64,000 nt of DNA from a bacterium (GTDB lineage Bacteria; Hinthialibacterota; Hinthialibacteria; Hinthialibacterales; Hinthialibacteraceae), in assembly GCA_963662285.2 (NCBI GenBank), contig CAXXMV010000001.1, forward strand, positions 224,001 to 288,000, written 5' to 3'. Position numbers and translations under genes: made by a program. A model generated the notes under the pieces. That model did no database searches, was not told where the DNA came from, and saw only the letters and a program-made list of their open reading frames with translations. Shown piece by piece: positions 4,623 through 49,710 of the stretch. How positions within the stretch are numbered: position 1 is the stretch's first letter; every line of letters starts with the position of its first letter.

Positions 4623-5303
4623 TTATTTTTTAACAAAAATTACATGCTCTCCATTCCAATTTTTGTCAATATAGAAGGGATTGTGGAGAACAAAACTCAC
4701 CGTAGATCGCGAAACACCTGTAAGACGAGCAATCGATCTCAGCGATTTCATGTCTTGGGCAAGTCTGAATATGTGCTCAACAATTGGTCTTGTCTTCTCA
4801 TCTATAACGATCCGCTTGTTCTGCATCCGGTAGCCAAGAGGAGGACGGTTCATAAACTGGCCCTTCTCTTTGGCGAGTTGTACTCCTCGTTTGATTCGTG
4901 CTTGACGAAGTTCCGTTTCGAATTCAGAGAAAACGCTTCTGATTTTGGCAAACGCCTTTTCTGATGGCGATTCTACTTTACATTCATTAACCAGGAATAT
5001 TTCAACACCATGCATGGAGAGATGTGTTGTCAGCCAACCAAACTGGAATAGATCGCGTGAAAGTCGGTCTGATTCAGTCGCGACAATTCCTTTTATAGGC
5101 GTTTTGATGTGATCGATCATATCGACGAGACCGGGACGCTCGAATAATTTCGTCGCACTCATTTTATCCTCAAAGAATTTAATTAATACTAAATCCTTTT
5201 TAGCGCAGAAGCGTTCTATTTCCCGCCGTTGTCCATCGAGAGAATATCCTTTGCCTTGCTCGCCGGTTGAAACGCGGACATAGCCAAAAACGTTTCGATT
5301 TAT
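4623..5303 (-). CDS. serine recombinase (resolvase catalytic domain plus short recombinase domain), probable ATA start
   Basis: Frame extends upstream of the called ORF through GYVRVSTGEQ (catalytic Ser); DRLSR and PPLGY motifs; only ATA at 5303 (overlapping the upstream TAA) or ATT is available before an in-frame TGA. Confidence 0.85.
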   Translation of the reverse strand: MNRNVFGYVRVSTGEQGKGYSLDGQRREIERFCAKKDLVLIKFFEDKMSATKLFERPGLVDMIDHIKTPIKGIVATESDRLSRDLFQFGWLTTHLSMHGVEIFLVNECKVESPSEKAFAKIRSVFSEFETELRQARIKRGVQLAKEKGQFMNRPPLGYRMQNKRIVIDEKTRPIVEHIFRLAQDMKSLRSIARLTGVSRSTVSFVLHNPFYIDKNWNGEHVIFVKK

Positions 5304-5608
5304 TTGCGACTGATCGGTCGTAATACGATATCACCCCGCTCGATGAATATTTCTATGTTGTCTCCCCCCTGGAGACGAACAGCTTTCGCCACTCCCGAGG
5401 GAATCGTAATTGAAAATTGACCGTTACTCCTTTGTTGTCGTAACACAACAACGTTTTGTGAGAGTCGTTTTCCACGCTTGGCCGAAAAATAGAGGATAGA
5501 TTTATCTACCTTGTCCATCATAATATTATGAATGAAATCATTAATAAACTTATCGTTAAACTGTTCAATTTGAAGGCGGTCTAAAAAGTCTACCTTCTTG
5601 GACGCCAT
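5300..5608 (-). CDS. AbrB/MazE/SpoVT-family DNA-binding protein
   Basis: NGQFSITIPSGVAKAVRLQGGDNIEIFIERGDIVLRP swapped-hairpin signature. Confidence 0.8.
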   Translation of the reverse strand: MASKKVDFLDRLQIEQFNDKFINDFIHNIMMDKVDKSILYFSAKRGKRLSQNVVVLRQQRSNGQFSITIPSGVAKAVRLQGGDNIEIFIERGDIVLRPISRK

Positions 5609-5620
5609 AATTGGAAAAGA

Positions 5621-5995
5621 TTATTTGTGGAGGTAGGACGCAATCGGTTTATATTCATCTTTCAGATGGCTATGGGGCCAGAATCCTGTAACTGGGCGAC
5701 ACATCCAAATATTTCCTTTCTTCTCATATTGCCATTCAGGAAAGTCAACGTAATGGGTATCGTTCTTGGAAAAGTGAGAGTTGGTATTTTTAGCTTGTGT
5801 TTCACGTTGGAGATAGAATTTCATTTTGGCCGATAGAAAATCTATGGAATGCTTTTTCCCCAATTCATATATATCCGTGTAATTCTTGCAGTGAAGGAGT
5901 TCTATTCCAAAGCTTTCAGGATAACCATCCCAATGTATCGCGATCAATACCTGATTACTTTCAGTCACAATTGCTCTCGTTCCTATTTTTATCAC
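5621..5995 (-). CDS. hypothetical protein of the HWDGYP family seen on phages/ICEs
   Basis: IHWDGYPE motif; co-oriented in the operon. Confidence 0.65.
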   Translation of the reverse strand: MIKIGTRAIVTESNQVLIAIHWDGYPESFGIELLHCKNYTDIYELGKKHSIDFLSAKMKFYLQRETQAKNTNSHFSKNDTHYVDFPEWQYEKKGNIWMCRPVTGFWPHSHLKDEYKPIASYLHK

Positions 5996-6035
5996 CTTAT
6001 TTTTCTGGAGAAAATTGTATCAAAAAAGAAAAAAA

Positions 6036-6291: not shown

Positions 6292-7104
6292 TCATGTTTC
6301 AATGACGAGGGCGCAGTTTTCAATGGATTGAATAATTGTGGATGCGCATTGCCTGATCCGCTCAAGCCGCTCAAAAAGTGAGTCTTTATTTCCATCCCAG
6401 TTTTTGATGTAATCTGCCGATGACTGGATCGCATCGATGCCAAACCGCTCACAAACAACACAGGCAACAGCATCCGCCTCAAGTTCTTCGATTGGACGAG
6501 GCGTTTTTCCATTATTAAAATGGAGATGAATATGAGCCCATTCATGAATCAGAACCGAGAAATTTTGCCCAGATGTCATTCCTTCTTTGAGTACAATTCG
6601 GTTTTTAGTTGAATAACCGTAGGCGCGTCCCGTTTCCCCATATTCAAATTCAATTCCGTTTGCTTGTATGGAGCTCAGCGCCATCTCAAAAACTTCTTCA
6701 GCATCTCCCTGGGCGCCAGAGAGATATGGAATCTCATCACCGTCAGTTTGGGAATAGTCAAATACATACGCGGGCCTGAATCCAATGACCTTATCTTGTT
6801 CGTCATCTTCATCCGCTTTTTTCTTAAGGCAGGGAGCCAGAATCCGAATTCCTTTTTGGCCTTTGCGGACACACCGATTCAATTTATTCCAGGTCCGAAA
6901 ACCGGCAACTCGGGACGCTTTGGGGAATTGGCTGAATATGAGCAGCTGGTTTCCGATAGAATAATGATGAAATCTCGACATTGCCTTCAGATACTCGATC
7001 ATTTCAGCGGAGTAGCCCTTCTCTAATTGATCCGCGAGTTTATCCAATGTCTCATCAATGGTTTTCTTTGTCTCCGAAATCAGATTTTTTGTTTTTTCAT
7101 TCAA
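6292..7104 (-). CDS. ardC: ArdC-like antirestriction protein (ssDNA-binding N-domain plus zincin domain)
   Basis: YSIGNQLLI, GFRTW, VRKGQKG, VFDYSQT, HEWAH and EELEA motifs; GGAGGTG RBS before TTG at 7104. Confidence 0.85.
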   Translation of the reverse strand: MNEKTKNLISETKKTIDETLDKLADQLEKGYSAEMIEYLKAMSRFHHYSIGNQLLIFSQFPKASRVAGFRTWNKLNRCVRKGQKGIRILAPCLKKKADEDDEQDKVIGFRPAYVFDYSQTDGDEIPYLSGAQGDAEEVFEMALSSIQANGIEFEYGETGRAYGYSTKNRIVLKEGMTSGQNFSVLIHEWAHIHLHFNNGKTPRPIEELEADAVACVVCERFGIDAIQSSADYIKNWDGNKDSLFERLERIRQCASTIIQSIENCALVIET

Positions 7105-7207
7105 ATATTTCACCTCCGGCCAACTGGCCAATTGCTACAAGTTGACGGAGCACAACTCTAAGAAAACCGGAAAGTATAAATAGGAGGAGTATTTTCATCA
7201 CTTCAAA

Positions 7208-7375: not shown

Positions 7376-8011
7376 TCATTCATTGAGTTGATCTAATTCT
7401 TTTTTTAATTCCCGTATTTTACGAAATATCTTATCATTTAATTCAGTTGGATAGACAAAATTTTTATATTTTGACAAATCTTCTGTTTTAATTTTACCAT
7501 CAAAAGCGAGTTTAAGAACACGGAAATGAGTAATTGCTATAGATAATAAACTAAGTCCTTTAATATCAACATCCGTCTTTGTAGGGTCAGGTTCATAATA
7601 AAACATTAACTCTTGATCATCAATCAAACCACCTTTGTCTATTATTAGCTGTTCTATGTTGGATTCTACAGAAATGATTTCTTTAAGAATATTACTATCA
7701 TTATCACTTAATCCCCTATGAGTCTCAGTTGTATTATTTATATGAGATTCAAGTATAAACTCTAAAGTTCTAAAATTATTGGGCTTATCAGATTTCAAGA
7801 TTTGATATAATGCTTTTGTTGTGTTTATATAAGACATCAATGGTCCATAAAATTCGTTCAATTGCTGTGAAATTATTTGTCTTTTTTCCCTTATTTTTTG
7901 TTCTTTCAAGCTAGATTGATTGTTCATATATGTTATACGACAAGTAATGAAACCTACAGCAATTACTGAAACAGCTGAAATGATAGCTGGGATAAGTGTA
8001 TTATAATCCAT
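7376..8011 (-). CDS. hypothetical protein with N-terminal transmembrane helix
   Basis: 211-aa ORF directly downstream of dndE; hydrophobic N-terminus. Confidence 0.7.
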   Translation of the reverse strand: MDYNTLIPAIISAVSVIAVGFITCRITYMNNQSSLKEQKIREKRQIISQQLNEFYGPLMSYINTTKALYQILKSDKPNNFRTLEFILESHINNTTETHRGLSDNDSNILKEIISVESNIEQLIIDKGGLIDDQELMFYYEPDPTKTDVDIKGLSLLSIAITHFRVLKLAFDGKIKTEDLSKYKNFVYPTELNDKIFRKIRELKKELDQLNE

Positions 8012-8050
8012 TATAATCTCTCCCTGCGGCTGTGAATCAGATTATTAAAC

Positions 8051-8434
8051 TCAAGGTGTTGCAACTGCAATTCTCATCAAATCCAAAATATTATTCATAT
8101 CTTTCGTACCAAATAAGAAAGAAATCCCGCGATGGACATGCAGTCGGAATTGTTTGCTTAATGTCTCTTCGTCTAACTCAAGCCTATCGCGCCAACAGCG
8201 TTCTTTAAGCAAGGCAAGATACACTGTCTCATACTCGCCTCCAAAAGTTCTCCATGACATTTCGACACCTCCCTCTAAAGGGATTTGGATATCACGTGGA
8301 GGAGAATTATCTGCTAACGATACACAAAACGCCCAGCGACATAGGATGTTCCAATTTTCGATACCAGTACGGCGCTTAAGCATAATCAATTGATCGCGGC
8401 CTTGTTTGGAAATTCGTACAGTTTCTAATGTCAT
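8051..8434 (-). CDS. dndE: DNA sulfur modification protein DndE
   Basis: LKRRTGIENWNILCRWAFCVSL and FRLHVHRGI motifs; synteny. Confidence 0.95.
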   Translation of the reverse strand: MTLETVRISKQGRDQLIMLKRRTGIENWNILCRWAFCVSLADNSPPRDIQIPLEGGVEMSWRTFGGEYETVYLALLKERCWRDRLELDEETLSKQFRLHVHRGISFLFGTKDMNNILDLMRIAVATP

Positions 8435-8445
8435 AAACAGCCTTC

Positions 8446-10422
8446 TTACCAGAAATAGTTTTTCTTGATTGATGATGTCTGTTTGCTTTCATCATACTCC
8501 AGCAAATAAGTATGCCCGATCCACTTTTTCAAATGTTCGTGATATTTATTGTTGATTTCTTCATCAGTAGAAAGTAAAATCACTTGGTGGCTAGCAAATG
8601 GAAAATAGCGTTCAACCAAATGCATCCGGTGCGACGCATCCAATCTCCCAAGAGGTGTATCAATAATCACCGGTATAGGTTTGCCAGATGCCCTCCCCAG
8701 AGCCCATAGCATCGAGATCGCCAAAAGTTGTCGTTCTCCTGCCGATAAATCATCGGCCTTGATTTCTTGGTTGTTACCATTATATAAAGATAAGCAGTAA
8801 TCCTGCGGATCAATCTCAATCTGGTTGATGAATGCCCTCTTGCGTAGTAACTGGTTGTAACTCTCTAATATAAACTTTGATAGTTTCTCTGCATTACGCG
8901 CAATTACTTTTTCTTTAAACACATTCATTGTTTTTTGCAAACGTTGTGAATGTTTGATTACTCTCTCCATATCAGAACGTCCAATTTCAACTTGCCAATT
9001 GTCATTATATTTTTTGTCTAATAGACGTTTCTTTTCATCACGCTCACGACTCAAACGTTCGTAATCTTGGTTGATTTCTTGGTATTGGATATTGAGTTTT
9101 TCTAAGTCTTTTTCTGTTTTGCTTTTCTCTTCCACAATCTGTGCTAAGGCATCCTCATCGGGTACCGCTGCCAGTTTTTGATTATATTGATCAATCGTGC
9201 GTGAAAACCTTTCTGCCTGTTTCAAGATTGATTTCACGTTTTGAGATTCTTGCTGCAATTCTTTTCCTAAAAGCACATCGATTTTGAATTTCGTTTTCTC
9301 ATCGGCATCTAAATACACATTAATCTTAGATGATTGCTCAGTCTTGTTGATGTCTTTCAGCAATTCTTCTTTCACAAGTTTGATCGTCTCTATATCCACC
9401 TTTTCTTTTTTCAATTTACTCAACAAAGATTCTTTTCTATTTGTCAAATGGTTTACCAAAACCTTGGCTTGCTGGGCTTCGAGTTCTTGATCAATTTGTC
9501 TGCGTATATTCTGAAGCAAATTCGAAACCAAGTTTAATGGTAATGCTCCCGAAGCCTTAATTATCAACTGTTTATCCAATTCTTCTTTTTGTTTCTCATT
9601 TTCCTTTTTCTTTTGTTCATACTCATGTCGACACTCATATAACTCGCCACCCTGTTGGGAAAATTTTATATTTAGATCACTCAGGCCTTTTTCAACTCGT
9701 CCTATTTTTGTATTCAAACTAGCCATTTCTTGATATTTGTTTGAAACATCTTTGTCTTTCTTTTCGATTTCTTTTTGCAAAGAATCAATCTCTTGAATTT
9801 CTTTTTGTTGTTTAAGTTTTTTTTGCTTATTCCGTTGCAATATGGCCAAATCAACCTTCAACTGTTCAACCAAATCTACTCCAAACAACGCATTGATCGC
9901 AGTTTGAAACAATTTGTTCGAATGAGTTGATTCTGCTAGCATTTCTATCTGCTCGCCATCAAAAAAGAAAAGATGAGCCAATTGCGTAGGCACAAAACGG
10001 TCAACTTGTTCTTGCCAGGAATCGGAAAAGAAAGACGAATACTCTCCATTTATATAAATATCTAGATTTTCCGATATGCGTGAACTGGATTTGGCAAATG
10101 AACGGCGCAAAGTATAGATTTTTTCTATGCCGTCTTCATAACTGCGGAAGGTCAATTCAACGAAAGCACCAAGTTTGGGATTCACATTTTTATTGATGCG
10201 GTTTTTTAAATACTCCTCATAACCGATATTTTTATTGCGTACTATAGGAGAAAATTTTCCATACAACACAAATTGAATGGCTTCGAGTAATGTGGTCTTA
10301 CCCACACCGTTTAATCCCCCAACCAATACTATTGGTTTTTTTTCTGAAGGTGGAGTTAGGTTCACAGATTGTTCACCGTGAAATATCCCAAAATTAGATA
10401 TAGTAATATTATCTAAGATCAT
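8446..10422 (-). CDS. dndD: DNA sulfur modification protein DndD (SMC-like ABC ATPase)
   Basis: GLNGVGKTT, FFFDGE, coiled coil, LSAGERQ, IIDTPLGRLD, STDEE. Confidence 0.95.
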   Translation of the reverse strand: MILDNITISNFGIFHGEQSVNLTPPSEKKPIVLVGGLNGVGKTTLLEAIQFVLYGKFSPIVRNKNIGYEEYLKNRINKNVNPKLGAFVELTFRSYEDGIEKIYTLRRSFAKSSSRISENLDIYINGEYSSFFSDSWQEQVDRFVPTQLAHLFFFDGEQIEMLAESTHSNKLFQTAINALFGVDLVEQLKVDLAILQRNKQKKLKQQKEIQEIDSLQKEIEKKDKDVSNKYQEMASLNTKIGRVEKGLSDLNIKFSQQGGELYECRHEYEQKKKENEKQKEELDKQLIIKASGALPLNLVSNLLQNIRRQIDQELEAQQAKVLVNHLTNRKESLLSKLKKEKVDIETIKLVKEELLKDINKTEQSSKINVYLDADEKTKFKIDVLLGKELQQESQNVKSILKQAERFSRTIDQYNQKLAAVPDEDALAQIVEEKSKTEKDLEKLNIQYQEINQDYERLSRERDEKKRLLDKKYNDNWQVEIGRSDMERVIKHSQRLQKTMNVFKEKVIARNAEKLSKFILESYNQLLRKRAFINQIEIDPQDYCLSLYNGNNQEIKADDLSAGERQLLAISMLWALGRASGKPIPVIIDTPLGRLDASHRMHLVERYFPFASHQVILLSTDEEINNKYHEHLKKWIGHTYLLEYDESKQTSSIKKNYFW

Positions 10423-11945
10423 GAGGATTTTGCCAAAGAATCAAACAAAGGTGCATCTTTGTCTTCTTGTTTAGTACTGGACTGTTTCCAACTCGCTTTT
10501 AATCGAGCCCGTTCTTTCGCATCATCAACGTCATCATAAAAACATCGTTCAATTATATTTTCCATCTCAATAAATAGCCCTCGACGTGTTGCTAAGGTCC
10601 GGTATCGTCGCTCTGTATCCAAAAGATTTCGTGCAAGTTCAAAATGTAATTCATCTCCGTTGCAGGTTTCTTTCAATAATTCCAAAGTTTCTGCATCAAA
10701 AATAAAATTGTCATCGATTAATTTACCAGGATACTCGTCACCCACAATTCGCTCATAAATTTTAGGAAGAAAATCTTCAATTTCGTGCTTTTCTGCTATC
10801 CAAATACGGCGAATCTCTTCCAACTCTTCCAATGTGATTAATTCAATGGAGCCCACTTCATTTGGCCCGTTTTTCCGAATAAATTGCTGGATTTCCAAGA
10901 CTCGTTCTAACCAATAGGCCCGTGTCTCTTGTTTATAAGGACCCGGAACCAATTGAAATTGGCCGTTTGTATCAGTATATGAAGATACTTGGCCGGTAAT
11001 ACGTCGAAAATCTCGACGTTCGCGATCACGTTTTTTATCTTTTTCTGAACGAAAATCTAATTCATTCCTAAGTTCTAGAAGAGGTGTCATCCATTCTTTT
11101 TCTTCATCATTTTGGATCATCGCATCCATTGATTTATCTTTTTCAACCAGGGTACAAACCCAACATCCAAAGCGGCTATTTCCACAACTTGATGTAGAAT
11201 TATCGACAACTAATGGACATTCACCATCTGCACTGGCTCCTCGGTACATACTCATCAAATCTTTATTATTATGTCCCCATGGATTCTTTATCTGCATCAA
11301 AAAAGTCCAAACATCATCGCTCGACCAGTCTTCTATTGGTGTATAAATGAGTGAATTAGGTAAACTTGAACTAGGTACGAGTCGATCACGTACTGCTTTT
11401 TTACGATGCTCTGCCATTGTACGAGCACGATTGGAACTTTCGGATTTCCTAGTTCCCAACACCAATACTGTTTCACCGTTTTCTTTCACAACATCACGTA
11501 CAAATTTGTTGGATGGATTAATCTTCAAACGCTCAGTGCACCAACGGAACCGGTGTCGAGGGGCAGGATAACCTTTTCCGATTAAATTAACCCAAAACGT
11601 ATCTTCAATGGCAGGCTTTAAAAGTTGGGGTTTAATAGGTAAACCATGTTCATTTGCATTTTTTCCCATTATTAACAATGAATTGCGTACCCATGAAGAA
11701 ACAATAGGATTCTCTACTAAAGTGTCTGTACTTATTGGGTATACAGGTTTTTCACGGTGTTTTTTGGGCAGTTCAGAAATGGCCAACCACACTAATTGCA
11801 AGGTCGCTGTAGAGTCTTTTCCTCCACTGTAACCTACAATCCAAGGAACTTCATCCGATAAATAAAGATCTTGAATTTCACGCTTTAGGAATTCAATCGT
11901 TGAAGAAAATCCACTTTTTGCAAATATAGATAATGGACGATTCAT
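10419..11945 (-). CDS. dndC: DNA phosphorothioation sulfurtransferase DndC (PAPS reductase family)
   Basis: GYSGGKDS PP-loop, RWCTERLKI, CGNSRFGCWVCT. Confidence 0.97.
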   Translation of the reverse strand: MNRPLSIFAKSGFSSTIEFLKREIQDLYLSDEVPWIVGYSGGKDSTATLQLVWLAISELPKKHREKPVYPISTDTLVENPIVSSWVRNSLLIMGKNANEHGLPIKPQLLKPAIEDTFWVNLIGKGYPAPRHRFRWCTERLKINPSNKFVRDVVKENGETVLVLGTRKSESSNRARTMAEHRKKAVRDRLVPSSSLPNSLIYTPIEDWSSDDVWTFLMQIKNPWGHNNKDLMSMYRGASADGECPLVVDNSTSSCGNSRFGCWVCTLVEKDKSMDAMIQNDEEKEWMTPLLELRNELDFRSEKDKKRDRERRDFRRITGQVSSYTDTNGQFQLVPGPYKQETRAYWLERVLEIQQFIRKNGPNEVGSIELITLEELEEIRRIWIAEKHEIEDFLPKIYERIVGDEYPGKLIDDNFIFDAETLELLKETCNGDELHFELARNLLDTERRYRTLATRRGLFIEMENIIERCFYDDVDDAKERARLKASWKQSSTKQEDKDAPLFDSLAKSS

Positions 11946-11949
11946 TTTA

Positions 11950-13047: not shown

Positions 13048-13154
13048 TTGATTTCAATTGAGATATATCATAATTTTAAAATTGAATTTTAATTTCGCTC
13101 TGTCAATATAGAGAGATTTTAGCAAAAGTTTGTGGAGGAATCAACAAACATACG

Positions 13155-14300: not shown

Positions 14301-14623
14301 AATTTTGTGTTAGTATTACCCTAAAACAATTTCCATAAATGATGGATAGTATCTGTAGATTCGTGAATATGCCTCGATATCAGAATCTATAATGCCAGGT
14401 ATTTTAATATCATTAATATCATTTATTTTGGGTAATTTCGAATTTATTTCACGTAATTCTTTATGAGTAAACATCGGTGCTTTTATTTTGTATGGATCAT
14501 CCTTTTCTCTAACAAAATCAAAATCTTTTATTTTACTCTTTATTATTTTTTCTTTGTCAATTTCATTATAGAAAATCCAACCCAATGTCATCATTTCTGA
14601 TCCATCCGAGTACTTAAAAAATA

Positions 14624-40429: not shown

Positions 40430-40455
40430 ACGGCCCGCTGAATAAAAACAGCAGA

Positions 40456-43400
40456 TTGCTAGAGGAGGCGGCAGTGTCTGAGTATATGCGGAAATATACA
40501 TGGTTAGAGCTTGCAGTTTATTGGCTGCTGCTCGTGATGCCCGTACCGGTTCCCGCTCAGGAAACCGGTTCTGAATATCTGATTCCAGAAGATTCAGTAT
40601 TCGATCCAAATACGGAATACGGTCCATTCTGGAGTACAAACAGGGTCAGTACGATTTTCTCCGATCATACGGATACCATTGAGCAAGATGTAACATTCGG
40701 TCCCTTCTGGGGGAGCAACCGAATTGGAGTGATCTTTTCCGATCATGCAGATACCATTGCGCAAGACATTACATTTGGCCCATTCTGGGGGAATAACCGG
40801 ATCGGCATATCTTTCTCCGACACCACCGATGAGATTTCGGAAGACATCGACTTTGGCCCGTTTTGGGGAAACAACCGCGTCAGTCTGACTTTCTCGGATG
40901 TCACCGATACGATCACGGAAGACCTTGAGTTCGGCCCGTTTTGGGGAAACAACCGCGTCAGTCTGACTTTCTCGGATGTCACCGATACGATCACGGAAGA
41001 CCTTGAGTTCGGCCCCTTCTGGGGGAGTAACCGAATATCGTTTAAATTTCAAGACCAACTCCCACCAGAGACAGATATATTAAGACCGGTTTCTGGAACT
41101 ATAATTTACAATCCAAAATATCGATTTGAATGGATCGGGAATGATGATACGACTCCCACTGTCGATCTACAGTATTCCTATCGTCTTGATGACCAAAATT
41201 GGAGTGATTTTTCATTAAATACGTCAACAAATTCAAATGATCTAACTGAAGGTGAACACACCTTCGAGGTAAAAGCCAAAGATCTTGATAATAAGGAAGA
41301 TCCGACTCCGGCAATCGTTGATTTTAACATAGACCTAAGTGCGCCAATCATCACCAATATCGAGATCAATCCTCTTCAAACAAATTGTACGATTACTTTT
41401 AGTACAGATGAACCATCAAAAGCATTAATACAATATGGCATTGATTCAAACACGAACCTTTTAATATCTTCAACCAATGAATGGAAAACAGAGCATACGA
41501 TAACGATCTCAGGATTGGAGATGGTAACGGCTTATACTTACACCATCGAAATCTGGGATCAAGGAAATCATAGAAACATAACTCAAGAAGGAATATTTGA
41601 AACAAAAGGCGCACCGGATCTTGTGGTTACGGGCGTAATGTTTGATACAGATATGGTCTGGCAAGAAGGAACGCTTAGTCTTGAATGGACAATACTTAAT
41701 CAAGGTGTTGAAACTGCCGGAGGGGAAAGACTCGATGCAATCTGTCTTTCTAATGACAAAAATATTGGAGAGGATGTATTAATTGCGGAAGTGAGTCAAG
41801 TTGATTCTATCGCTCCAGGAGAAACAAAAACATTCTCATCAAATATTAATATATCAAATGATGAATTAAATGATGGTATCTATTTTCTTGTCGTGACAAC
41901 AGATGTGTCTAACAAAATATTTGAAGGAGGCAATGAAAGCAATAATAGTTTTATCAATTCAAATTACATAATTCTTAGAGAATACGAAGCAATTATTACA
42001 AGGTGCGATGTAGATATCGCTCCAGCAGGCTCTCCTGTAACTCTCCATGGTGAAGCGTTAAGATTATCAGATGGTGAACTTGCTCCGAACGTACCAGTTC
42101 AAGTCGCTATATCCGTTAGGGGGATTTCTCGTGTTTCAGAAACCATAACGGACACGAATGGAGAGTTCGAACTTGTTTTCACTCCTCTTTCAATGGAAGC
42201 AGGCCGATATCAAGCATTTGCCAAACACCCCTTCGATCTAAATAAAAACGAATCAGAAGTAGAGTTTTCGCTCGTTGGGATGAAGGCAAGTCCAAACCAA
42301 GTGCAATATAATCTCATAACAGGGATCCCTCTCTCAGCCACTTTAGAACTTTCAAACCTGGGTGATGTTCCATTACAAAATATCCAAAAAGAAATTCGTG
42401 CAACGTCTAATGGGATAAGTTTAGATATTCAATTTCCTGCAGAATTGAATGGTTTAGAAATTACATCTATTCCTTTTGTCATTGAGGCAATGGATGATGT
42501 AACTGAAAATTCAACAATTAATATATCGCTTACGAGCATTGAAGGCGCTACTGAATTAGTTGAAATTGAAACACATGTTACTCCCTCTCAGCCAAAATTA
42601 GTAAACTATCCGGGCGTTTTGAATATAGGGATGATTCGAGGCAGTCAAAAATTTGTTGAATGTGAACTTACTAATAGTGGTGGGGCTCCTGCTGAAAATG
42701 TCCGTATTGAATTACCTCAATCAAATTTACAAGATTGGTTAAAGTTAGCTTCTCCAGATACTTTCTCAATGATCGAACCTGGTGAAACCAAAAAGATTAT
42801 CGTAGCGCTTCGTCCACCCGATGACATGATACTTGGACCATATCAAGGAGAGATTATTGTTCATTATGATCTAAATAAATGGATTCAAATACCTTTTAAC
42901 TTTATCTCGGTTTCTGATAGCAAAGGAGATTTGAGAGTCAATGTTGTGGATGAATACACGGTTTTTGGTGAAAGTGCTCCACGCGTGATTGATGCTACAG
43001 TTACTTTGATGAATCCAGCTGATAGCACAACAATATTGGCAACCAGTAATTCGAATGGTACAGCATTAATAGAGGATGTAACAGAAGCTTTCTATTATAT
43101 AGATGTTGAGGCTGATAGGCACTATTCCATAACAAGATTGCCACTCGAACTTTCTGCGGGTATTGTTAATGAAGCAACGGTATTCTTGAATCGTGAACTC
43201 ATAACATACCGTTTCAATGTCGAACCAGCAGAGATTGAAGATAAATACAATATATCCATAGAAACAGTCTTTGAAACAAACGTACTTGCCCCCGTAGTCA
43301 CAATAGATCCACCCATAGGTAGGATTATACTTTTCGATGATCAACCTACAACGATCAATTTTAATATAACCAATCACGGACTGATAGATGCTGAGAATAC

Positions 43401-44235
43401 TTACTTGAATTTCCCCGTAGATTCATATTTTACAGTTACACCTCTGGTTGAAGATATTGGTGTAATACCTGCTGGGCAAACAATAACAGTTCCTGTGCGT
43501 GTGGAAAAAAGTCATGAGACGAGTTTAAATCTAGCATCACAGAAAAGATTGTCTTCAATTGATAGAATTGATGAAGATATTTTTGATAAAGGTCCATGCG
43601 AAAAATCTATATCAGGTAAAGTGGTTTATGATTATGTTTGTGTTGGAACAACATGGGTGGAAATCCCTATACCGATTTATGTTTTTGAAATGCTCGAAGA
43701 AATAATCAAAGCTGGTATTTGTACTGCAGATCTTACAATATGTGTTGGAGCATTATCAACACCTGGATCTCAATTTGTTGCTTTACCATTTTGTATAAGA
43801 GGTACTGAATGTTTGTGTAAGTATATGAGTGCTATGACACAAGAATATTCATGTTGTTGGTGCCATATCATCGGATTAAGTACAATTGTTAATGGCAAGA
43901 AAACTAAAATTAATGGCTGGGAAGAAGACCTTTCTCATCCAACAACCGATCCAGGTGAGAAAGCATTAGATTTTATAAAAGTAACTGAAGCGGTAGAATG
44001 CATAAATGATGCCATAAACAAAAATCCTCCTACACCCTCTCAGAAAGAAAAGGAGAGGGAAAAGGGAAATAGAATAAATCGTAGTGGAAGCAGAATTGGC
44101 AGTGGTGGTTCTGTCTATTACTCAAATACATATTTTAGACAAAGTTATGTTCAAGGACCACATAACGGAAAAGGCGGTTATGTATGGCAATCAAAATGCG
44201 GTCCAAAACCCAAATCAACTGACTCACAGAATTGA
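40456..44235 (+). CDS. large secreted multidomain protein (26-aa repeats, Ig/FN3-like, CARDB, Cys-rich C-terminus)
   Basis: Signal peptide; DPTPA; PDLVV...ESNN CARDB pattern; Cys-rich tail. Confidence 0.85.
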   Translation: MLEEAAVSEYMRKYTWLELAVYWLLLVMPVPVPAQETGSEYLIPEDSVFDPNTEYGPFWSTNRVSTIFSDHTDTIEQDVTFGPFWGSNRIGVIFSDHADTIAQDITFGPFWGNNRIGISFSDTTDEISEDIDFGPFWGNNRVSLTFSDVTDTITEDLEFGPFWGNNRVSLTFSDVTDTITEDLEFGPFWGSNRISFKFQDQLPPETDILRPVSGTIIYNPKYRFEWIGNDDTTPTVDLQYSYRLDDQNWSDFSLNTSTNSNDLTEGEHTFEVKAKDLDNKEDPTPAIVDFNIDLSAPIITNIEINPLQTNCTITFSTDEPSKALIQYGIDSNTNLLISSTNEWKTEHTITISGLEMVTAYTYTIEIWDQGNHRNITQEGIFETKGAPDLVVTGVMFDTDMVWQEGTLSLEWTILNQGVETAGGERLDAICLSNDKNIGEDVLIAEVSQVDSIAPGETKTFSSNINISNDELNDGIYFLVVTTDVSNKIFEGGNESNNSFINSNYIILREYEAIITRCDVDIAPAGSPVTLHGEALRLSDGELAPNVPVQVAISVRGISRVSETITDTNGEFELVFTPLSMEAGRYQAFAKHPFDLNKNESEVEFSLVGMKASPNQVQYNLITGIPLSATLELSNLGDVPLQNIQKEIRATSNGISLDIQFPAELNGLEITSIPFVIEAMDDVTENSTINISLTSIEGATELVEIETHVTPSQPKLVNYPGVLNIGMIRGSQKFVECELTNSGGAPAENVRIELPQSNLQDWLKLASPDTFSMIEPGETKKIIVALRPPDDMILGPYQGEIIVHYDLNKWIQIPFNFISVSDSKGDLRVNVVDEYTVFGESAPRVIDATVTLMNPADSTTILATSNSNGTALIEDVTEAFYYIDVEADRHYSITRLPLELSAGIVNEATVFLNRELITYRFNVEPAEIEDKYNISIETVFETNVLAPVVTIDPPIGRIILFDDQPTTINFNITNHGLIDAENTYLNFPVDSYFTVTPLVEDIGVIPAGQTITVPVRVEKSHETSLNLASQKRLSSIDRIDEDIFDKGPCEKSISGKVVYDYVCVGTTWVEIPIPIYVFEMLEEIIKAGICTADLTICVGALSTPGSQFVALPFCIRGTECLCKYMSAMTQEYSCCWCHIIGLSTIVNGKKTKINGWEEDLSHPTTDPGEKALDFIKVTEAVECINDAINKNPPTPSQKEKEREKGNRINRSGSRIGSGGSVYYSNTYFRQSYVQGPHNGKGGYVWQSKCGPKPKSTDSQN
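40594..41055 (+). repeat. six in-frame 78-bp tandem repeats (GPFWGxNR core)
   Basis: GPFW codons start at 40621, 40699, 40777, 40855, 40933 and 41011. Confidence 0.9.
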
Positions 44236-44270
44236 ATTTCTTTGATTTATTAGGAATTAGAGGAACTAAA

Positions 44271-46766
44271 ATGAGAAAATTATGTATATTTTTAATATTA
44301 TTTGCGTCTCTTGAGTTCTTATTATACGATTCGATAATTGCGCAGGACGATGATCTCAAAGAAGGGATTTGCGCAAAAATACGGTTGCGAATCGAACAAG
44401 AGGCAGTAATGACAAAGTCCGCATTCAAAGCAACACTAGAAATTTTCAATAACGCGCCTTATCCAATTACAAATATCTTTACTGACTTGTCAATTGATGA
44501 TGCAACTGGAGAGGAAAGTACTTACAAATTTCTTATTAGCCCAAATCATAATAAAAATATACAAACTATTGATAGTTCCGGTGTAATTAATCCAAGCGAA
44601 AATGCTATTATAGAGTGGTTGATAATTCCGAATAAAGAGGCAGCGATTAATGGCCCTGCTAGATATAATATAAGCGGTATCCTTGAATATTATGATCAAG
44701 ACGTATTAGTATCAATTCCTCTTTTACCAGCAGCGATTTGGGTTTTTCCATCTGCAGAATTAGATGTTCATTATTTTCAAGAAAAATATGTCTATTCAGA
44801 CGATCCTTTTACAGAGGATATAATTGAGCCATCCACTCCTTTTTCTCTCGGTCTTTTAATCAATAATGTAGGTAAGGGGAATGCAAACAATGTAAGAATA
44901 TTTTCCTCACAACCGAAGATAATAGATAATGAACGAGGATTAATTATTGACTTTAAAATAATTGATACGCAAGTTGGTTTGGAGCCAGTATCACCTTCTT
45001 TGACAGTCGATTTTGGCGATATTTTGGCAGGCAAGTCTGCTGTTGCTCGGTGGAGAATGACTTCAACATTATCCGGAGAATTTACCGAATATCAGGCGAA
45101 AGTTGAACATGAAGACTATTTAGGAGAACCACAGATCACCAGCATAGATATACACGAATTAATCCATGTAATGCGAATGGATACGCCTGAGTCAGATTTA
45201 TTGCAAGATTATTTAGTGAATGATGTCACTAGTGATAATTTACCAGATATAATTTATTCAAGTAATGGCGCAGTGTATCCGGTAAATGTTGCAAGCAATA
45301 TACTGATAAACGAGTTAAAAAATCAATTATTTTCCGAGATATCTGTAGAATCAACCGTAACGGATGGCTGGATTTATCTTAAGATAGATACACCTGGAAA
45401 ATCTTATAAACTTACTAGGGTAATTCGCTCAGATGGTAAAGAAATCTTGTTAAGTGATAATGCCTGGGTTACTAATCGCGTCATACGTTTAAACGGACAA
45501 ACACCTTATCAAGAAAATCTTGCACATATTGTTGATTACAACAGTACTGGTTCTTATGAACTTTATTTCGAAAATATTGAAATAGTAGGACCAACACCAA
45601 CGCCAACAATTACTCCAACACCAACATTAACCCAAACACCTTTACCAAAACCAGCAATAAATATTTTTGACAGCGCATCTGAAAAAAGTGTTGTCATTGA
45701 ATGGGATATGCCGAACGTTTTGAAGGATGGTGAACATTTTGTTGATTCACATATATATGTCACAATTAATGATGCAACGGAAACTGTATTTTTGGGAAAT
45801 ACTCGTAATGGTTATGACACATCGTTTGAATGGTTTAAGAATAATCCACTGCTTCACGATTCATTTAGAGAAGGTCCAGATTTTTCACAAAATTACTCTT
45901 ATTCATTTTTTTCAATAATCGAAAGTATTGATGATTATAATAATTCTAAAATGAAACATGAAGGCCCCTTTAATACAATTGCAAGATATAAGTTTTCAAA
46001 CCAATATGAAATAGAGGATGTTGATTATGATGATCCTGAAAATCGCTCTATTGTGATTAGTTGGGATATTAATCCAAATTTATTTAATGGTTACATAATA
46101 GATAATTATGCAGTATATGTAAAATCGAATACTCAAAATATGCTCGAATTATTAGGGTATTCTGGAGATAGCAGAACAAACTATTTTATATGGGATACGA
46201 AAAATAAATATGTAATAAATAAATTCAAGGATGGCCCTCAATTTTATAGTATTTATCTCTTTTATGTAAAACCAATTTTTACGAAAGATCCACAACCAGA
46301 ATTTGGACCATATGCAAGTGAAACAAGTATTAAAGTTGAACCAATACTAATAATCACTGATTCAATCGAGTCATACGATGATATATCCGGCAAAGTCTAT
46401 ATTGAAGATGGCAGTGATAAGGAATTAATTTTGAGATGGAACTTCAACGAAAACGAATTAGACTTTGAAAATGTTCAAGATTATCACATTTATGTATCAG
46501 AAAACAACGAAAACTCTTACCAATATTTAGGAAGACCAAACATCAAAGAAAATAGAAAGAATGGATATGTGATATGGAATAAAGTATCTTCATCATATAT
46601 TAGCAAGGAATATATTAACGGCCCTCAATTTAATAAAAAATATTTCTTTGAGTTGTATCCTATGACAAAAAATGGTCAAATTCCTTATTATGGCCCATAT
46701 AAAGCAAACGGATCAATCACATATAATGAAAAATCAACGGATGTAAAAAATTGGGAAATATATTAA
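44271..46766 (+). CDS. secreted protein with PT linker and three C-terminal internal repeats
   Basis: Signal peptide from ATG 44271; GICAKIRLRIEQE; PTPTPT linker. Confidence 0.85.
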   Translation: MRKLCIFLILFASLEFLLYDSIIAQDDDLKEGICAKIRLRIEQEAVMTKSAFKATLEIFNNAPYPITNIFTDLSIDDATGEESTYKFLISPNHNKNIQTIDSSGVINPSENAIIEWLIIPNKEAAINGPARYNISGILEYYDQDVLVSIPLLPAAIWVFPSAELDVHYFQEKYVYSDDPFTEDIIEPSTPFSLGLLINNVGKGNANNVRIFSSQPKIIDNERGLIIDFKIIDTQVGLEPVSPSLTVDFGDILAGKSAVARWRMTSTLSGEFTEYQAKVEHEDYLGEPQITSIDIHELIHVMRMDTPESDLLQDYLVNDVTSDNLPDIIYSSNGAVYPVNVASNILINELKNQLFSEISVESTVTDGWIYLKIDTPGKSYKLTRVIRSDGKEILLSDNAWVTNRVIRLNGQTPYQENLAHIVDYNSTGSYELYFENIEIVGPTPTPTITPTPTLTQTPLPKPAINIFDSASEKSVVIEWDMPNVLKDGEHFVDSHIYVTINDATETVFLGNTRNGYDTSFEWFKNNPLLHDSFREGPDFSQNYSYSFFSIIESIDDYNNSKMKHEGPFNTIARYKFSNQYEIEDVDYDDPENRSIVISWDINPNLFNGYIIDNYAVYVKSNTQNMLELLGYSGDSRTNYFIWDTKNKYVINKFKDGPQFYSIYLFYVKPIFTKDPQPEFGPYASETSIKVEPILIITDSIESYDDISGKVYIEDGSDKELILRWNFNENELDFENVQDYHIYVSENNENSYQYLGRPNIKENRKNGYVIWNKVSSSYISKEYINGPQFNKKYFFELYPMTKNGQIPYYGPYKANGSITYNEKSTDVKNWEIY

Positions 46767-46778
46767 AATATTGAAGCG

Positions 46779-46985
46779 TGAGAAAACTTCCGATGGAACT
46801 CACATGTGTCTTTTGTATATCTTAATCCAAATTCGTTATCATCACTCCAGAATGAAAAGAAAATTAGTTATAAATCAACTTCGCCTTATATCGCAATAGA
46901 GAGAACGCTATTCGCATAGTTCGATTCGATTCACGTTAGCAATTAACATACAATAAAAAAATAATTTCCATCGGAAATTTACTCA
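46779..46985. other. putative Orc1/Cdc6-type replication origin (inverted ORB-like boxes around an AT-rich spacer)
   Basis: 22-bp inverted repeat, 19/22 match (46779-46800 / 46964-46985), core TTCCATCGGAA; archaeal ORB core is TTCCAGTGGAA. Confidence 0.45.
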
Positions 46986-47044
46986 AACCTCCAAGGCATA
47001 TCTCATTCGTAAAGTATTTATAACAAAACTTTTACGAAAAGGAA

Positions 47045-48232
47045 ATGTCACCGCAGCCTGTTTTCCCCCGATTTAATGTCCGCTCGGATTTCTTCTCACA
47101 AATTCTTGATCCGTTTGGTATGATCGATTTCGCATCCGTTTATTCACGGCACAATCAAATAGTCGATTTCATTCTCTTTTCCATACTCTTTATTGGAATC
47201 AGCCGTGTAACACTTACCAAACACTTTAATGGAGCCGGAGGAAAATTGCTGTCTGTTGGAACCGGTATCGTTCTTTCCCTGGCATTAGTGATTATGCAAG
47301 ATCAAATGGGATTTTCACTACTAACCTTTGCCCCGTTTGCCGTATTCCTTCTTTGCATTCTTATGATCTTGATGCTCTTTGTTGTACTCAACTCATTTGG
47401 TATGCAAACCAAGATATCTTTATCGATCTCGTATATTGCAATATACACCTGTCTTCGTGCGTTTGTACCATCATTCTTCGATTGGCTAACCTGGAACGTT
47501 TCATTTGTCGCAGGGATTATGACTATCGCACTAATCATCTCCATTGGAATCATCTTATTTGCGATCATGCCCAAATCCAACCAATCGACATCGTTTGGAG
47601 ATCAGGCAATGAAAATCGCACCAGAACTTTTCCCGAAGATGCAAGAAGCATCTAATTTGATCGATTCATCCAACAATCTCAGCAACCAGATCGATATTTC
47701 AGAACGTGATGTTTTCAAACGCTTAAAGCAAATTCGAAAATTTCTACCCACATTAATGCAGACCGAAGGAGGCCAGGCAGAACTCTTGCAAGCCATACGG
47801 GAGATTAAATTAGAGAACAACGAGATCGTTTCCAAATTAAGCAAGATGAGCGAAATAAACAAAGCCATCGAGTCAGAAGACGTCCAAGTTTTCCAAAAGT
47901 TATTCGGTATGATGAATAAAGTACCCAATAATCAGATGTCAAAAGCGGTCAAGGCATTAAAAGGAGCAAAGCAACGCCTTAATTTGGAATCCGTCATCGC
48001 GAGTTTAGAAAAACGAATCGATGAGATAACAAATAAATTTTCGAAACTCATCGACATCTTGTTCAATGCCGTCCAAAACCGCGATATCAACACCGCCAAA
48101 AGAGCGATTGATGCCGCCATCCAAATGGAAAAAACTCTGCAGCGCATCATCAAGCCTCTGGAAGCGATCGAAAGTAGCCTTAAAGCCTCATACAATAGAG
48201 CCATCAGAATGACGACACCTAAAAAACGCTAA
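47045..48232 (+). CDS. membrane protein (about 5 TM helices plus C-terminal coiled coil)
   Basis: Hydrophobic N-terminal half, helical C-terminal half. Confidence 0.8.
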   Translation: MSPQPVFPRFNVRSDFFSQILDPFGMIDFASVYSRHNQIVDFILFSILFIGISRVTLTKHFNGAGGKLLSVGTGIVLSLALVIMQDQMGFSLLTFAPFAVFLLCILMILMLFVVLNSFGMQTKISLSISYIAIYTCLRAFVPSFFDWLTWNVSFVAGIMTIALIISIGIILFAIMPKSNQSTSFGDQAMKIAPELFPKMQEASNLIDSSNNLSNQIDISERDVFKRLKQIRKFLPTLMQTEGGQAELLQAIREIKLENNEIVSKLSKMSEINKAIESEDVQVFQKLFGMMNKVPNNQMSKAVKALKGAKQRLNLESVIASLEKRIDEITNKFSKLIDILFNAVQNRDINTAKRAIDAAIQMEKTLQRIIKPLEAIESSLKASYNRAIRMTTPKKR

Positions 48233-48351
48233 TCATCATGTTGTTCTGGATCAAAATCCTGCATAAGATGCTCTTGTTGTTCACGCCATATATCCGTAAT
48301 TGTAAAATCTCCTCTCAGCAAAAAAGTGCGATGTTCTTGTTTTTCTTTCAT
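48229..48351 (-). CDS. putative small protein (40 aa)
   Basis: MKEKQEHRTF...HDD*; BRE/TATA-like motif 20 nt upstream. Confidence 0.3.
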   Translation of the reverse strand: MKEKQEHRTFLLRGDFTITDIWREQQEHLMQDFDPEQHDD

Positions 48352-48390
48352 TCCGATTCAATTGAGATTGGTATATAAGAACCTTTCGAT

Positions 48391-49653
48391 TTAAGAAAGC
48401 CCGATCAACCGCTTCAAACGATCAAGAATTCTTTCGGTCAAATCTTGATCATTCGAATTATAAATCTCCCGGCTTTTGCCATATCTCCCATGGCTCACAA
48501 CACGTGTGTTTATGAGCGAGTACAAATCAAATGAGGAAATAATATCGGAGAAGCGCCTCTGGCTGATTGGTCGAATTTTGATGGTATTCGCCAAACGTTG
48601 ATATTGCTCGAAAACCTCTCCTGTATGAACGCGATTATTGTTTTTAAGCAAAAGCGAATAACAAGCCGCAAGGGAAATTTTCTGCTGTAAGGGAAGTGAC
48701 TCTGCTAGAGACATCGCCTTTTCATATTCAAGTGCTTTTTCCGCCTCTTCAACCTCACTTACAGTCAGATTGCCCCCTGCTCGTTCGGCTAAATACGATG
48801 ACTTCATCAAAAGTTCAATCGCTTTCCTTGCATCCCCGGAATCTTTTGACGACACTGCGGCAATACGAGCGATAGCGGCTTCATCAACTCGGCTTTGATC
48901 GAGCGCTTTGGCTATCCGTAATTCCAAAATCTGACGAATTTCAAGCGCATGATATGGATTAAAGATAATATCGTTTTTCTTCAAACAGGATTTTGTGCGG
49001 GCATCTAACGAATTCTCCCAATTCAGTCGATTTGTCGAGAAGATATAGATCAACCGGACTCGAACCTGACGCGGAAGACTTTTAACGATGAAGGTCATAA
49101 ACACATCACGATCTACTGATATAGAATCGATCTCATCAAGAAAAAGGATCAATGTTCCTTGTCGCTCATTCAAATAATCGCGGATGCGAGACTGCATAAG
49201 TTCAATGGGAATCCCTTTGAAATACGAGCGCCCCTGCCCAATGCTGATCGCAATCCGGTTCAAACCAGCAAATGCTGTAGTGGATTGAGACAAATCGACA
49301 TAATAATAATCAAGTGGAATCGATTCACGATCAGCGATAAATTTTATAGTTTCCAAGAGAGTGGTAATGGATACTGTTTTTCCTGATCCTGTCACTCCGA
49401 TTGTCAAAAGATGGCTAGGTGTCCGATTATTCAGACAAGGACTGAGATGTTCAGATAATGCTTTGAGTTCGCACTCTCTTACATCACGCGAGAAGATTTC
49501 AGTTAACACCTTAGACCGTTCATCGTCAGGGAGAGCCTCATCATCGAGATAATCCGCATTTAGGATTAACGGTTTTCGATCCTTCGGCAACCGACAAGCG
49601 TTTATAAACGATTCAACACGGTTTTCTTTTCCATGAGCAATTTCCTCGGACAT
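48391..49653 (-). CDS. cdc6: Orc1/Cdc6-family AAA+ replication initiator
   Basis: GVTGSGKT, LFLDEID, FNPY...ILELR, GDARKAIELL, C-terminal wHTH (TGEVFEQY...SQRRF...GRYG). Confidence 0.9.
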   Translation of the reverse strand: MSEEIAHGKENRVESFINACRLPKDRKPLILNADYLDDEALPDDERSKVLTEIFSRDVRECELKALSEHLSPCLNNRTPSHLLTIGVTGSGKTVSITTLLETIKFIADRESIPLDYYYVDLSQSTTAFAGLNRIAISIGQGRSYFKGIPIELMQSRIRDYLNERQGTLILFLDEIDSISVDRDVFMTFIVKSLPRQVRVRLIYIFSTNRLNWENSLDARTKSCLKKNDIIFNPYHALEIRQILELRIAKALDQSRVDEAAIARIAAVSSKDSGDARKAIELLMKSSYLAERAGGNLTVSEVEEAEKALEYEKAMSLAESLPLQQKISLAACYSLLLKNNNRVHTGEVFEQYQRLANTIKIRPISQRRFSDIISSFDLYSLINTRVVSHGRYGKSREIYNSNDQDLTERILDRLKRLIGLS

Positions 49654-49710
49654 GAAATAGAAGAAATAATGGGAATATATAAATGTTATGCAATTTAAGA
49701 GAAGATTAAA

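Follow-up and report, generated by a model that had tools for sequence, protein, structure and literature searches.

Orc1/Cdc6 and putative origin boxes of archaeal type in a family of bacterial integrative elements

This study identified, in a bacterium of the phylum Hinthialibacterota, an integrative element that carries a canonical Orc1/Cdc6 protein together with inverted boxes resembling the origin recognition boxes (ORBs) of archaea. The element is 72,359 bp long (C1:205621-277979) and lies on contig CAXXMV010000001.1 (C1) of assembly GCA_963662285.2, a genome (G000) of 7.29 Mb in 8 contigs, with 44% GC and an estimated completeness of 92.5%. The window, i.e., the whole 64,000-nt stretch that was analyzed (base 1 is C1:224001; positions without a contig name refer to it), holds the right-hand 54 kb of the element up to position 53979, and the left end lies 18,379 bases before window base 1. 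We consider it probable (roughly 0.7) that this is an integrative element with an archaeal-type replication module, which replicates after excision, is transferred with the help of HerA-type ATPases, and carries its cargo between blocks of backbone genes.

A diverged second copy, the sister element, is located at a tRNA-Lys gene on contig C8 of the same genome, and further copies were found in relatives from the same order (G002, G007, G008, and G011) when 26 genomes of the order and 35 of the phylum were compared. Loci L004 (Desulfatiglandales), L005, and L006 (Desulfarculaceae) belong to Thermodesulfobacteriota. The window proteins were scanned with Pfam, NCBIfam, PHROGs, and PADLOC, the PHROGs scan covering 19 different proteins. 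An earlier note, made from the window letters alone, had named an Orc1/Cdc6, a HerA-nuclease fusion, a multi-transmembrane (TM) protein, AbrB, ArdC, ECF/FecR, and dnd genes, and profile or structure searches found all of them (Table 1).

Orc1/Cdc6 and the Putative Origin

The Orc1/Cdc6 protein is recognized by Pfam as Cdc6_C (1.5e-21) and Cdc6_lid (1e-12), and by NCBIfam TIGR02928, which gives 242.2 bits (cut-off 181.3), aligns residues 59-397 with profile positions 20-364 of 366, and passes its cut-off in 3 of 14 control genomes. Solved structures that match are the Aeropyrum ORC1 (PDB 2v1u, 9.9e-47 over residues 59-408) and the Sulfolobus Orc1 (1e-38). There is no inserted domain, the TIGR02928 and 2v1u alignments being unbroken. 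Residues G86, G89, G91, K92, D173, N208, and G273-D274-A275-R276 are invariant in 20 Cdc6 sequences; we take them to form the Walker A (GxxGxGKT), Walker B (DE), and sensor-2 GDAR motifs.

A search of 1.84 billion cluster representatives gave 2563 matches to this protein at E≤0.001 and 130 at ≤1e-30, of which a handful were more than 35% identical. In a FastTree phylogeny of 183 rows, the window protein belongs to a clade of 57 rows with a support of 98, in which every labelled member is bacterial, namely this phylum and, in Thermodesulfobacteriota, Desulfatiglandales, NaphS2, and Desulfarculaceae. The placement of the clade relative to archaeal groups has a support of 52 with a midpoint root, and the labelled outgroup clusters include Acidilobus and Micrarchaeota as the nearest labelled non-bacterial relatives. 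Identity to archaeal proteins is approximately 26–31%; 425 plasmid records in PLSDB match, all below 60% identity, and the best 30 rows (26–30%) are all haloarchaeal. As the protein belongs to a well-supported bacterial clade and is only about 30% identical to archaeal proteins, it is not a recent arrival.

Inverted repeats with the core TTCCANNGGAA adjoin Cdc6 or the neighboring membrane-protein gene in the window, C8, G011, G008, L004, and L005. Twelve sites were used to build a 22-nt matrix. When the 7.29-Mb genome was searched with it, the only four sites scoring above 23 bits all fell in the two elements (window 46778 and 46965; C8:1181193 and 1181383), including one, C8:1181193 (28.6 bits), from outside the training set. 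In both elements, the boxes of the pair are inverted and 187–190 nt apart around a spacer of 30–31% GC (165 nt and 30% GC in the window). Other sites outside the training set stand beside Cdc6 in G007 (27.8 bits), L004 (19.3), L006 (19.0), and G002 (18.9), and about four sites elsewhere in the 7.29 Mb reach 18 bits or more. The distance from the Cdc6 start is 35–350 nt in G011, G008, G007, L004, L005, and L006.

The mini-ORB of Pyrococcus, TTCCAGTGGAACT, as it appears in the cited part of PMC1904270, has the same core as the element boxes, and the ORB expressions of Ori-Finder 2, as excerpted from PMC4164010, fit this core too. The likeness to archaeal Orc1/Cdc6-ORB origins, both chromosomal oriC and haloarchaeal plasmid replicons, covers the domain architecture, the motifs, the full-length similarity to Aeropyrum and Sulfolobus Orc1, and the inverted boxes beside the gene with the core TTCCA-NN-GGAA(A). 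Unlike these origins, the element has a bacterial host, an initiator at the low identity given above, no MCM, a box 3' half (roughly ATCTTCTCAC) instead of the archaeal G-string, and a replication role predicted from sequence. The specificity of the boxes and their match with archaeal ORBs provide the strongest argument that Cdc6 may be an origin binder here.

Limits of the Element and tRNA Integration

The repeats bounding the element are 48–53 nt long and correspond to the 3' end of tRNA-Gly(CCC). Direct repeats of the 3' 43–53 nt of this tRNA lie at C1:277980-278027, C1:205568-205620, and C1:183091-183133, with the intact gene at C1:299180-299252, and a 30-nt core has four exact matches in the whole genome, all at these sites. 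GC rises from about 36% to 48% at the right repeat; across the window it is 30–40% from about 2000 to 54000, apart from one 49% block at 22000-27000. A conserved 50–75-nt stretch left of the window, found by a flank search in relatives, is the 3' half of the tRNA. ARAGORN reported no tRNA within the window, and Rfam gave zero matches in the window or in L040, the C1 region left of the element. This anatomy shows that the element entered a tRNA-Gly(CCC)-derived site via its own tyrosine integrase. The limits of 4623-49690 proposed in the earlier note were therefore too narrow, as the attachment (att) repeats place the ends left of the window and at 53979.

From the left end inward, the part outside the window comprises the att repeat, the integrase, an Hsp70/actin-like gene split by an insertion sequence (IS), a second HerA gene, DUF5131, and DUF3987. 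The integrase-proximal genes have colinear homologs in sister elements, so these 18 kb belong to the same element. The small serine recombinase was considered as the integrase and rejected, since a tyrosine integrase sits at the tRNA 3' end in both elements of the genome.

A clean empty site was not obtained, the left flank searched in relatives giving only IS and tRNA-fragment matches. In G002, a tRNA-Gly 3' fragment (27–46 nt) lies 880 nt after the same TPR gene as in G000, and the sequence beyond it is not syntenic with C1 left of 183091. The right flank is syntenic in 26 of the 26 order genomes from 56545 onward and includes a TonB/ExbB/ExbD cluster, which fits a diderm host. The element may thus have entered at an ancient, relic att site; alternatively, the region may have been rearranged.

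Contigs assembled by Logan from two short-read runs (X1 and X2) are identical to the window over 44001-51336 and 55415-64000, their only breaks being at an ISL3 copy and the tRNA repeat. They bridge cargo, box region, membrane protein, and Cdc6, so that one backbone/cargo junction among those that the earlier note had wished to see spanned is covered, by runs that may derive from the source sample and hence are not fully independent. A chimeric assembly was rejected, as these contigs match both intervals without a difference. Loose contig ends at 54024-54029 resemble the 5' halves of tRNA genes and are uninformative on excision.

Several neighboring features were also observed. A second integrase (C1:297928-298983) adjoins the intact tRNA-Gly(CCC), and the third tRNA-Gly repeat delimits an extra 22-kb segment (C1:183091-205567) left of the element, in which no homolog of the element's integrase was found. 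Beyond this segment, a HerA gene of 44% identity lies at C1:175787-177118. Between the right att repeat and the TPR gene, a 155-aa open reading frame (ORF; 55496-55963) has 13 tblastn hits in the genome and many DNA matches in relatives.

Element Family

At C8:1178514-1274510, homologs of twelve window proteins are arranged in the same order, with 37–94% identity, and 10 further proteins from the part outside the window match C8:1274716-1301645 and G002. The tRNA-Lys(CTT) gene on C8 (1302351-1302424) is accompanied by a 45-nt repeat of its 3' end at C8:1137417-1137461, 165 kb away, and the integrase of the sister element lies 236 nt from this repeat, the same layout as in the window element. 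The same protein set is found in G002 and in three G011 copies, and partly in G007 and G008. The three G011 copies share 90–93% DNA identity across a 23-kb core, which ends sharply without recognizable repeats; a fourth G011 Cdc6 match sits on a contig whose flanks were not compared.

Cdc6 occurs in 5 of the 26 order genomes (G000 included), in 5 of the 35 phylum genomes, and in 3 of 401 sampled Thermodesulfobacteriota genomes, two of which have several copies. This patchy, multi-copy, and cargo-swapping distribution is the behavior of a mobile element. Since the backbone recurs with different cargo, in two copies in G000 and in four other genomes, the family is real, as the earlier note had supposed when it spoke of a family of integrative elements and pointed to synteny as the way to recognize it. 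Among the copies, only that in the window carries the dnd/Pbe and WD40/CARDB blocks.

On C8, 40 kb of mostly 52–56% GC (C8:1137462-1178513) separate the integrase from Cdc6, and the 165-kb region between the tRNA-Lys repeats may combine more than one element. A third Cdc6 in G000, at C2:1506786-1507016 (L003), is a remnant of 77 codons, 57% identical, with two in-frame stops and no ORB-like site nearby, and looks like the trace of a lost element. In L004, the Cdc6/membrane-protein pair lies between a SIR2_2 + HerA pair, a known defense pairing, and a Replic_Relax-family protein (L004:1730-4791 and 14488-15420), and in L006, a tyrosine integrase comes after a pair of a 169-aa and a HerA-like protein. 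The G011 core also holds, between the small conserved ORFs and Cdc6 (C110:40680-42235; L031:680-2235), three ORFs of 137, 151, and 257 aa that have no window counterpart, the longest with zinc-ribbon-like CxxC pairs.

HerA-Type ATPases, Membrane Protein, and Transfer Genes

An AlphaFold2 (AF2) model of the 685-aa HerA fusion (pLDDT 82) matches HerA itself (4d2i, 1.6e-14) in Foldseek, along with DndH-C, SIR2-HerA, and VirB4 structures. The global search left the C-terminal nuclease domain undefined; the C-terminus consists of a winged helix-turn-helix (wHTH) followed by an alpha-beta-beta-beta-alpha-beta arrangement, a restriction-endonuclease (REase)-like fold, in which H559, E580, D590, E603, E605, and K617 are invariant. 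The conserved acidic and lysine residues suggest that this domain has nuclease activity. The protein has at least 1887 homologs, and the few named ones come from metagenome-assembled genomes (MAGs) of Gammaproteobacteria, Ignavibacteriota, Marinimicrobia, and Hydrogenedentota. Its best NCBIfam match is the crenarchaeal CedD (3e-21), at 75.7 bits against a cut-off of 600, and a weak PHROG terminase match (5.6e-9) spans 42 P-loop residues. Neither the 657-aa paralog nor the DUF3987 protein has a significant match among PDB sequences, and PADLOC gave no specific match for Cdc6, HerA, MoxR, or VWA.

In every copy, L004 and L005 included, the membrane/coiled-coil protein is found with Cdc6 and the boxes. 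It has no match to a known family, a word-index search returned only the protein itself, and the AF2 model, built from 7 sequences, is poor (pLDDT 64.5, pTM 0.36).

With regard to known transfer genes, the relaxase families PF03432, PF08751, and PF13814 have 0 matches genome-wide (MOBH, MOBV, MOBT, and the remaining relaxase families lay outside this search), as has the coupling protein PF02534, and VirB4 (TIGR00929) has none above the cut-off, the best scores being those of the two HerA genes at 34 and 21 bits. Among the 19 proteins scanned against PHROGs, a set that leaves out many ORFs, none was assigned to a virion (capsid, portal, tail) or terminase family. MCM (PF00493) has no match in either element; the family matches all 14 controls and is thus unspecific. 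As none of the searched relaxase, VirB4, or coupling-protein families is present in the genome, we propose the two HerA-wHTH-nuclease paralogs, the only candidate DNA movers, for transfer. The earlier remark that the mode of transfer is unexplained still stands.

Other Genes of the Element

AbrB is always directly upstream of the resolvase-type serine recombinase in the G000 and G002 copies. This recombinase, also noted earlier, is real, whereas the ORF first listed for it was incomplete: the frame extends upstream to 5303 and covers the catalytic-serine stretch YVRVSTGEQ. Its start codon is ATA, compared with an ATG overlapping the AbrB stop in the sister copy, and it is probably inactive or poorly translated. 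The ArdC-like protein is present in all 6 copies long enough to show it.

The dnd set of cargo block 1 is complete, with DndE (1.1e-42), DndB (2.6e-139), PAPS_reduct (DndC), AAA_23 (DndD), and Aminotran_5 (DndA). The ISL3 copies in the element are 1393 nt long; their transposase has 16 tblastn hits genome-wide, and short-read depth is about 7x that of the flanks. A Transposase_29 IS splits the Hsp70-like gene.

The block 22091-27044 has 49% GC compared with about 36% around it, and its MoxR/CobS-like and CobT/VWA proteins share 94% and 79% identity with their C8 counterparts, against 55–70% for neighboring backbone genes, which suggests that elements have recently exchanged this block or that it has undergone gene conversion between them. 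The ECF/FecR/FG-GAP/pilin-like module is common to the three G011 copies at 27–38% identity. Because it is shared with the G011 core, it is semi-backbone rather than private cargo; its reading as pure cargo, or as the host-type cargo of the earlier note, was rejected.

Table 1. Features of the element and its surroundings (window positions unless a contig is given)
Feature	Position	Strand	Remarks
Left att repeat	C1:205568-205620		outside window
Tyrosine integrase	C1:205816-206943		Phage_integrase 2.5e-31; 196 nt from the repeat at 205568
Second HerA-wHTH-nuclease paralog, 657 aa	C1:214625-216598		outside window; hhalign 99.6% over 581 columns, full-length
DUF3987 helicase-like gene	C1:222261-223406		matches PHROG helicase/primase families
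Element interior	1-415		runs leftward beyond the window
IS66-family IS	416-1955	-	transposase 425-1879; 22-nt terminal inverted repeats; multi-copy
Two ORFs, 172 and 488 aa	2232-4213	+	cargo; 30% GC, no family, absent from sisters
Small serine recombinase, resolvase type	4623-5303	-	C-terminal HTH; listed ORF 4623-5162 misses catalytic N-terminus
AbrB/MazE (SpoVT-AbrB) DNA-binding protein	5300-5608	-	
124-aa backbone protein	5621-5995	-	70% identical in C8 copy; no family
ArdC-like protein	6292-7131	-	backbone; ArdC N-terminal domain and zincin metallopeptidase
Cargo block 1, DNA phosphorothioation	7376-21820	-	absent from sister elements
dndE, dndD, dndC, dndB	8051-13047	-	
dndA/IscS	13155-14300	+	
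Pbe-like module	in 7376-21820		Methyltransf_35 split by ISL3, HATPase_c_3, DndE-HerA/FtsK fusion, DndD/PbeC-like ABC ATPase, Sp-DndD
ISL3-family IS, copy 1	14624-16016	-	8-bp target duplication; interrupts Methyltransf_35 gene
Conserved ORF	22091-22609	-	backbone
DUF2924-like protein	22461-22931	-	
CobT-like VWA protein	22968-24860	-	
MoxR/CobS-like AAA_5 ATPase	24857-25954	-	
Small conserved backbone ORFs	26059-26295, 26356-26778, 26793-27044	-	
HerA/FtsK-superfamily ATPase with wHTH and PD-(D/E)xK-like nuclease domain, 685 aa	27327-29384	-	backbone; DUF87
157-aa backbone protein	29387-29860	-	always just upstream of HerA; also in L006
87-aa backbone protein	29918-30181	-	conserved in all copies
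Pilin-like (N_methyl) protein, FecR, ECF sigma factor, two FG-GAP proteins	30352-35530		ECF sigma/FecR 31028-32331
Cargo block 2	35669-46766	+	1121-aa WD40 (15 repeats), 378-aa secreted, 1259-aa CARDB/NEW3, and 844-aa fn3 proteins
Putative origin, two inverted 22-nt ORB-like boxes	46778-46799; 46965-46986	-; +	core TTCCATCGGAA
Membrane protein	47045-48232	+	N-terminal helical TM bundle (4 hydrophobic segments), C-terminal coiled coil of ~200 aa
Orc1/Cdc6 AAA+ protein, 420 aa	48391-49653	-	canonical; lid and C-terminal winged helix; Pfam, NCBIfam, PDB
432-aa ORF	49711-51009	-	cargo; no family, no homolog in sister elements
ISL3-family IS, copy 2	51308-52700	-	identical to copy 1; own 8-bp target duplication
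Two ORFs, 120 and 246 aa	52772-53867	+	element right end; weak MraZ/AbrB-like similarity
Terminator-like hairpin	53935-53980		beside right att repeat
Right att repeat, 48 nt	53980-54027	-	anticodon loop to acceptor end of tRNA-Gly(CCC) 3' part; identical in register

Discussion

In the proposed mechanism, the excised circle would replicate from the Orc1/Cdc6-box origin, with Orc1/Cdc6 binding the boxes and recruiting a helicase. As the element has no MCM, its DUF3987 helicase-like protein is the candidate for this step. The remaining backbone would serve maintenance and establishment: AbrB may act in regulation and the resolvase, though crippled in the window copy, in resolving multimers; the ArdC-like protein may counter restriction in a new host; and the membrane/coiled-coil protein beside the origin may tether element DNA. 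The two HerA-wHTH-nuclease ATPases would pump or process double-stranded element DNA, and transfer is the weakest step of the scheme. Between the backbone blocks, the cargo would comprise the dnd and Pbe-like module, the giant WD40/CARDB surface proteins, and IS elements. A bolder version, in which the elements are episomal, Orc1/Cdc6 on the ORB boxes loads a non-MCM helicase, and the HerA pumps and the membrane protein move DNA between diderm cells without relaxase or type IV secretion system (T4SS), appears doubtful at present.

Several points weigh against a replicating integrative element. An archaeal-type initiator would have to work with bacterial replisome parts. Neither an excised circle nor an empty site nor a replication intermediate was observed; the runs were available as contigs only, which break at the tRNA repeat. 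The right repeat (53980) is a fragment rather than an intact tRNA, and 21 kb, including the TonB cluster that is part of the syntenic core in 26 of 26 order genomes, separate it from the intact gene; therefore, the insertion history is not a textbook one. A search around the G002 and G011 copies revealed neither tRNA genes nor flanking repeats at least 14 nt long. In both G000 copies, the boxes are upstream of the membrane-protein gene, about 2.7 kb (within 2.9 kb) from the Cdc6 start, and the 30% GC of the spacer is barely under the island mean. The boxes could be operators, with Cdc6 acting as a regulator. Moreover, the lost resolvase start and two IS-split backbone or cargo genes indicate that the window copy may be decaying, and the element may be partly decayed.

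Neighborhoods with HerA/FtsK and Orc/CDC6 are, in addition, read as defense systems in the cited part of PMC10853773. In that case, Cdc6 and the HerA-wHTH-nuclease, perhaps with MoxR/VWA, would form a 'HerA/FtsK capture' system riding a tRNA-integrated island, Cdc6 localizing the complex on DNA, HerA reeling in and cutting foreign DNA, and the boxes serving regulation or self-marking. The mobile neighborhoods argued there as defense combine Orc/CDC6, HerA/FtsK, wHTH, and an active REase, and the element likewise has a HerA ATPase, a wHTH, and an REase-like domain, joined in one polypeptide (27327-29384) and again in its paralog. The top Foldseek matches include DndH-C and SIR2-HerA defense complexes, the island is rich in defense cargo (dnd/Pbe), and in L004, the SIR2-HerA pair lies 5 kb from Cdc6. 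However, the inactive REase insert between the AAA+ core and the wHTH, which defines the class in the cited part of PMC10853773, is absent from the 420-aa Cdc6, and PADLOC had no specific match for the four candidate proteins. Cdc6 and HerA form no operon, since 19 kb separate them in the window and about 10 kb in G011, and they are accompanied by ArdC, an integrase, and a helicase-like gene. The highly specific inverted ORB-like pairs beside Cdc6 fit an origin better. We therefore consider defense unlikely as the explanation, although the data set of PMC10853773 may overlap with this family.

The earlier note had derived the whole backbone from an archaeal integrative element that entered bacteria and gained bacterial cargo. 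Orc1/Cdc6 with ORB-type boxes is indeed how archaeal replication starts, and the all-haloarchaeal best 30 rows of the 425 PLSDB matches, the nearest labelled non-bacterial relatives (Acidilobus, Micrarchaeota), and the match of HerA to CedD, far under the cut-off, point the same way. Against this, only Orc1/Cdc6 and the boxes are archaeal in type; ArdC, ECF/FecR, MoxR/VWA, the resolvase, AbrB, and the tyrosine integrase are of typical bacterial families, and the few named HerA relatives, of at least 1887, are bacterial MAGs. The bacterial clade of Cdc6 holds at support 98, as opposed to 52 for its relation to archaeal groups, and this gene set did not turn up in an archaeal locus, L008, the only one compared, sharing Cdc6 alone. 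An archaeal origin of the entire backbone is thus very improbable.

P4-like satellites and prophages often carry an integrase at a tRNA gene, DUF3987, and DUF5131. Their presence here and the weak terminase match of HerA (5.6e-9, 42 residues) would suit a decaying prophage or phage satellite that uses helper particles, with HerA as the packaging motor and the integrase, DUF3987, DUF5131, and ArdC as remnants, but the 19 proteins scanned against PHROGs include no capsid, portal, tail, or terminase protein and the 23-kb G011 core exists without the DUF3987/DUF5131 part. While many ORFs are unassigned, this reading is very unlikely.

The integrative element with an archaeal-type replication module, which we favor, can also be compared with known mobile systems. 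It resembles tRNA-targeting tyrosine-integrase islands, integrative and conjugative elements (ICEs), and integrative and mobilizable elements (IMEs) in its integrase by a tRNA 3' repeat, tandem accretion at one tRNA, deviant GC, and defense and surface cargo. Unlike these, the element and its genome lack the searched relaxase, VirB4, and coupling-protein families, and its replication module consists of Orc1/Cdc6 instead of being of a Rep, DnaA-like, or primase-only type. Compared with the capture systems in the part of PMC10853773 cited, its Cdc6 is without the inactive-REase insert, its genes are not one operon, and it adds ORB-like boxes, an integrase, ArdC, and a helicase-like gene. The Ced system, in the cited part of PMC11868833, works with the paralogs CedB and CedD, as two paralogous HerA-clade ATPases are found here; the element ATPases, however, have no TM segment and carry a wHTH and a nuclease domain, and no CedA/VirB6-like channel was identified, the membrane protein not having been fold-searched. 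Ced may serve as an analogy, not as a family to which the element belongs. The FtsK-like TraB of actinomycete elements transfers DNA without a relaxase.

In the literature, we found no paper on bacterial integrative elements with Orc1/Cdc6 and ORB-like boxes, although Supplementary Data S1 of PMC10853773 may contain some. The usual view is that bacterial replicons start with DnaA or Rep-type initiators, and Orc1/Cdc6 with ORBs is the hallmark of archaea. Conserved among mobile elements of two or more bacterial phyla, a self-contained Orc1/ORB module would test the portability of archaeal-type initiation, including which helicase is loaded, and could supply a new replicon class for poorly tractable bacteria. 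The finding also advises caution against reading every Orc/Cdc6-HerA neighborhood as a defense system. The clear spread of the family without known transfer machinery points to a route not yet described for Gram-negative bacteria, which, if true, would be a third bacterial DNA-transfer route with a logic akin to that of archaeal Ced and actinomycete TraB.

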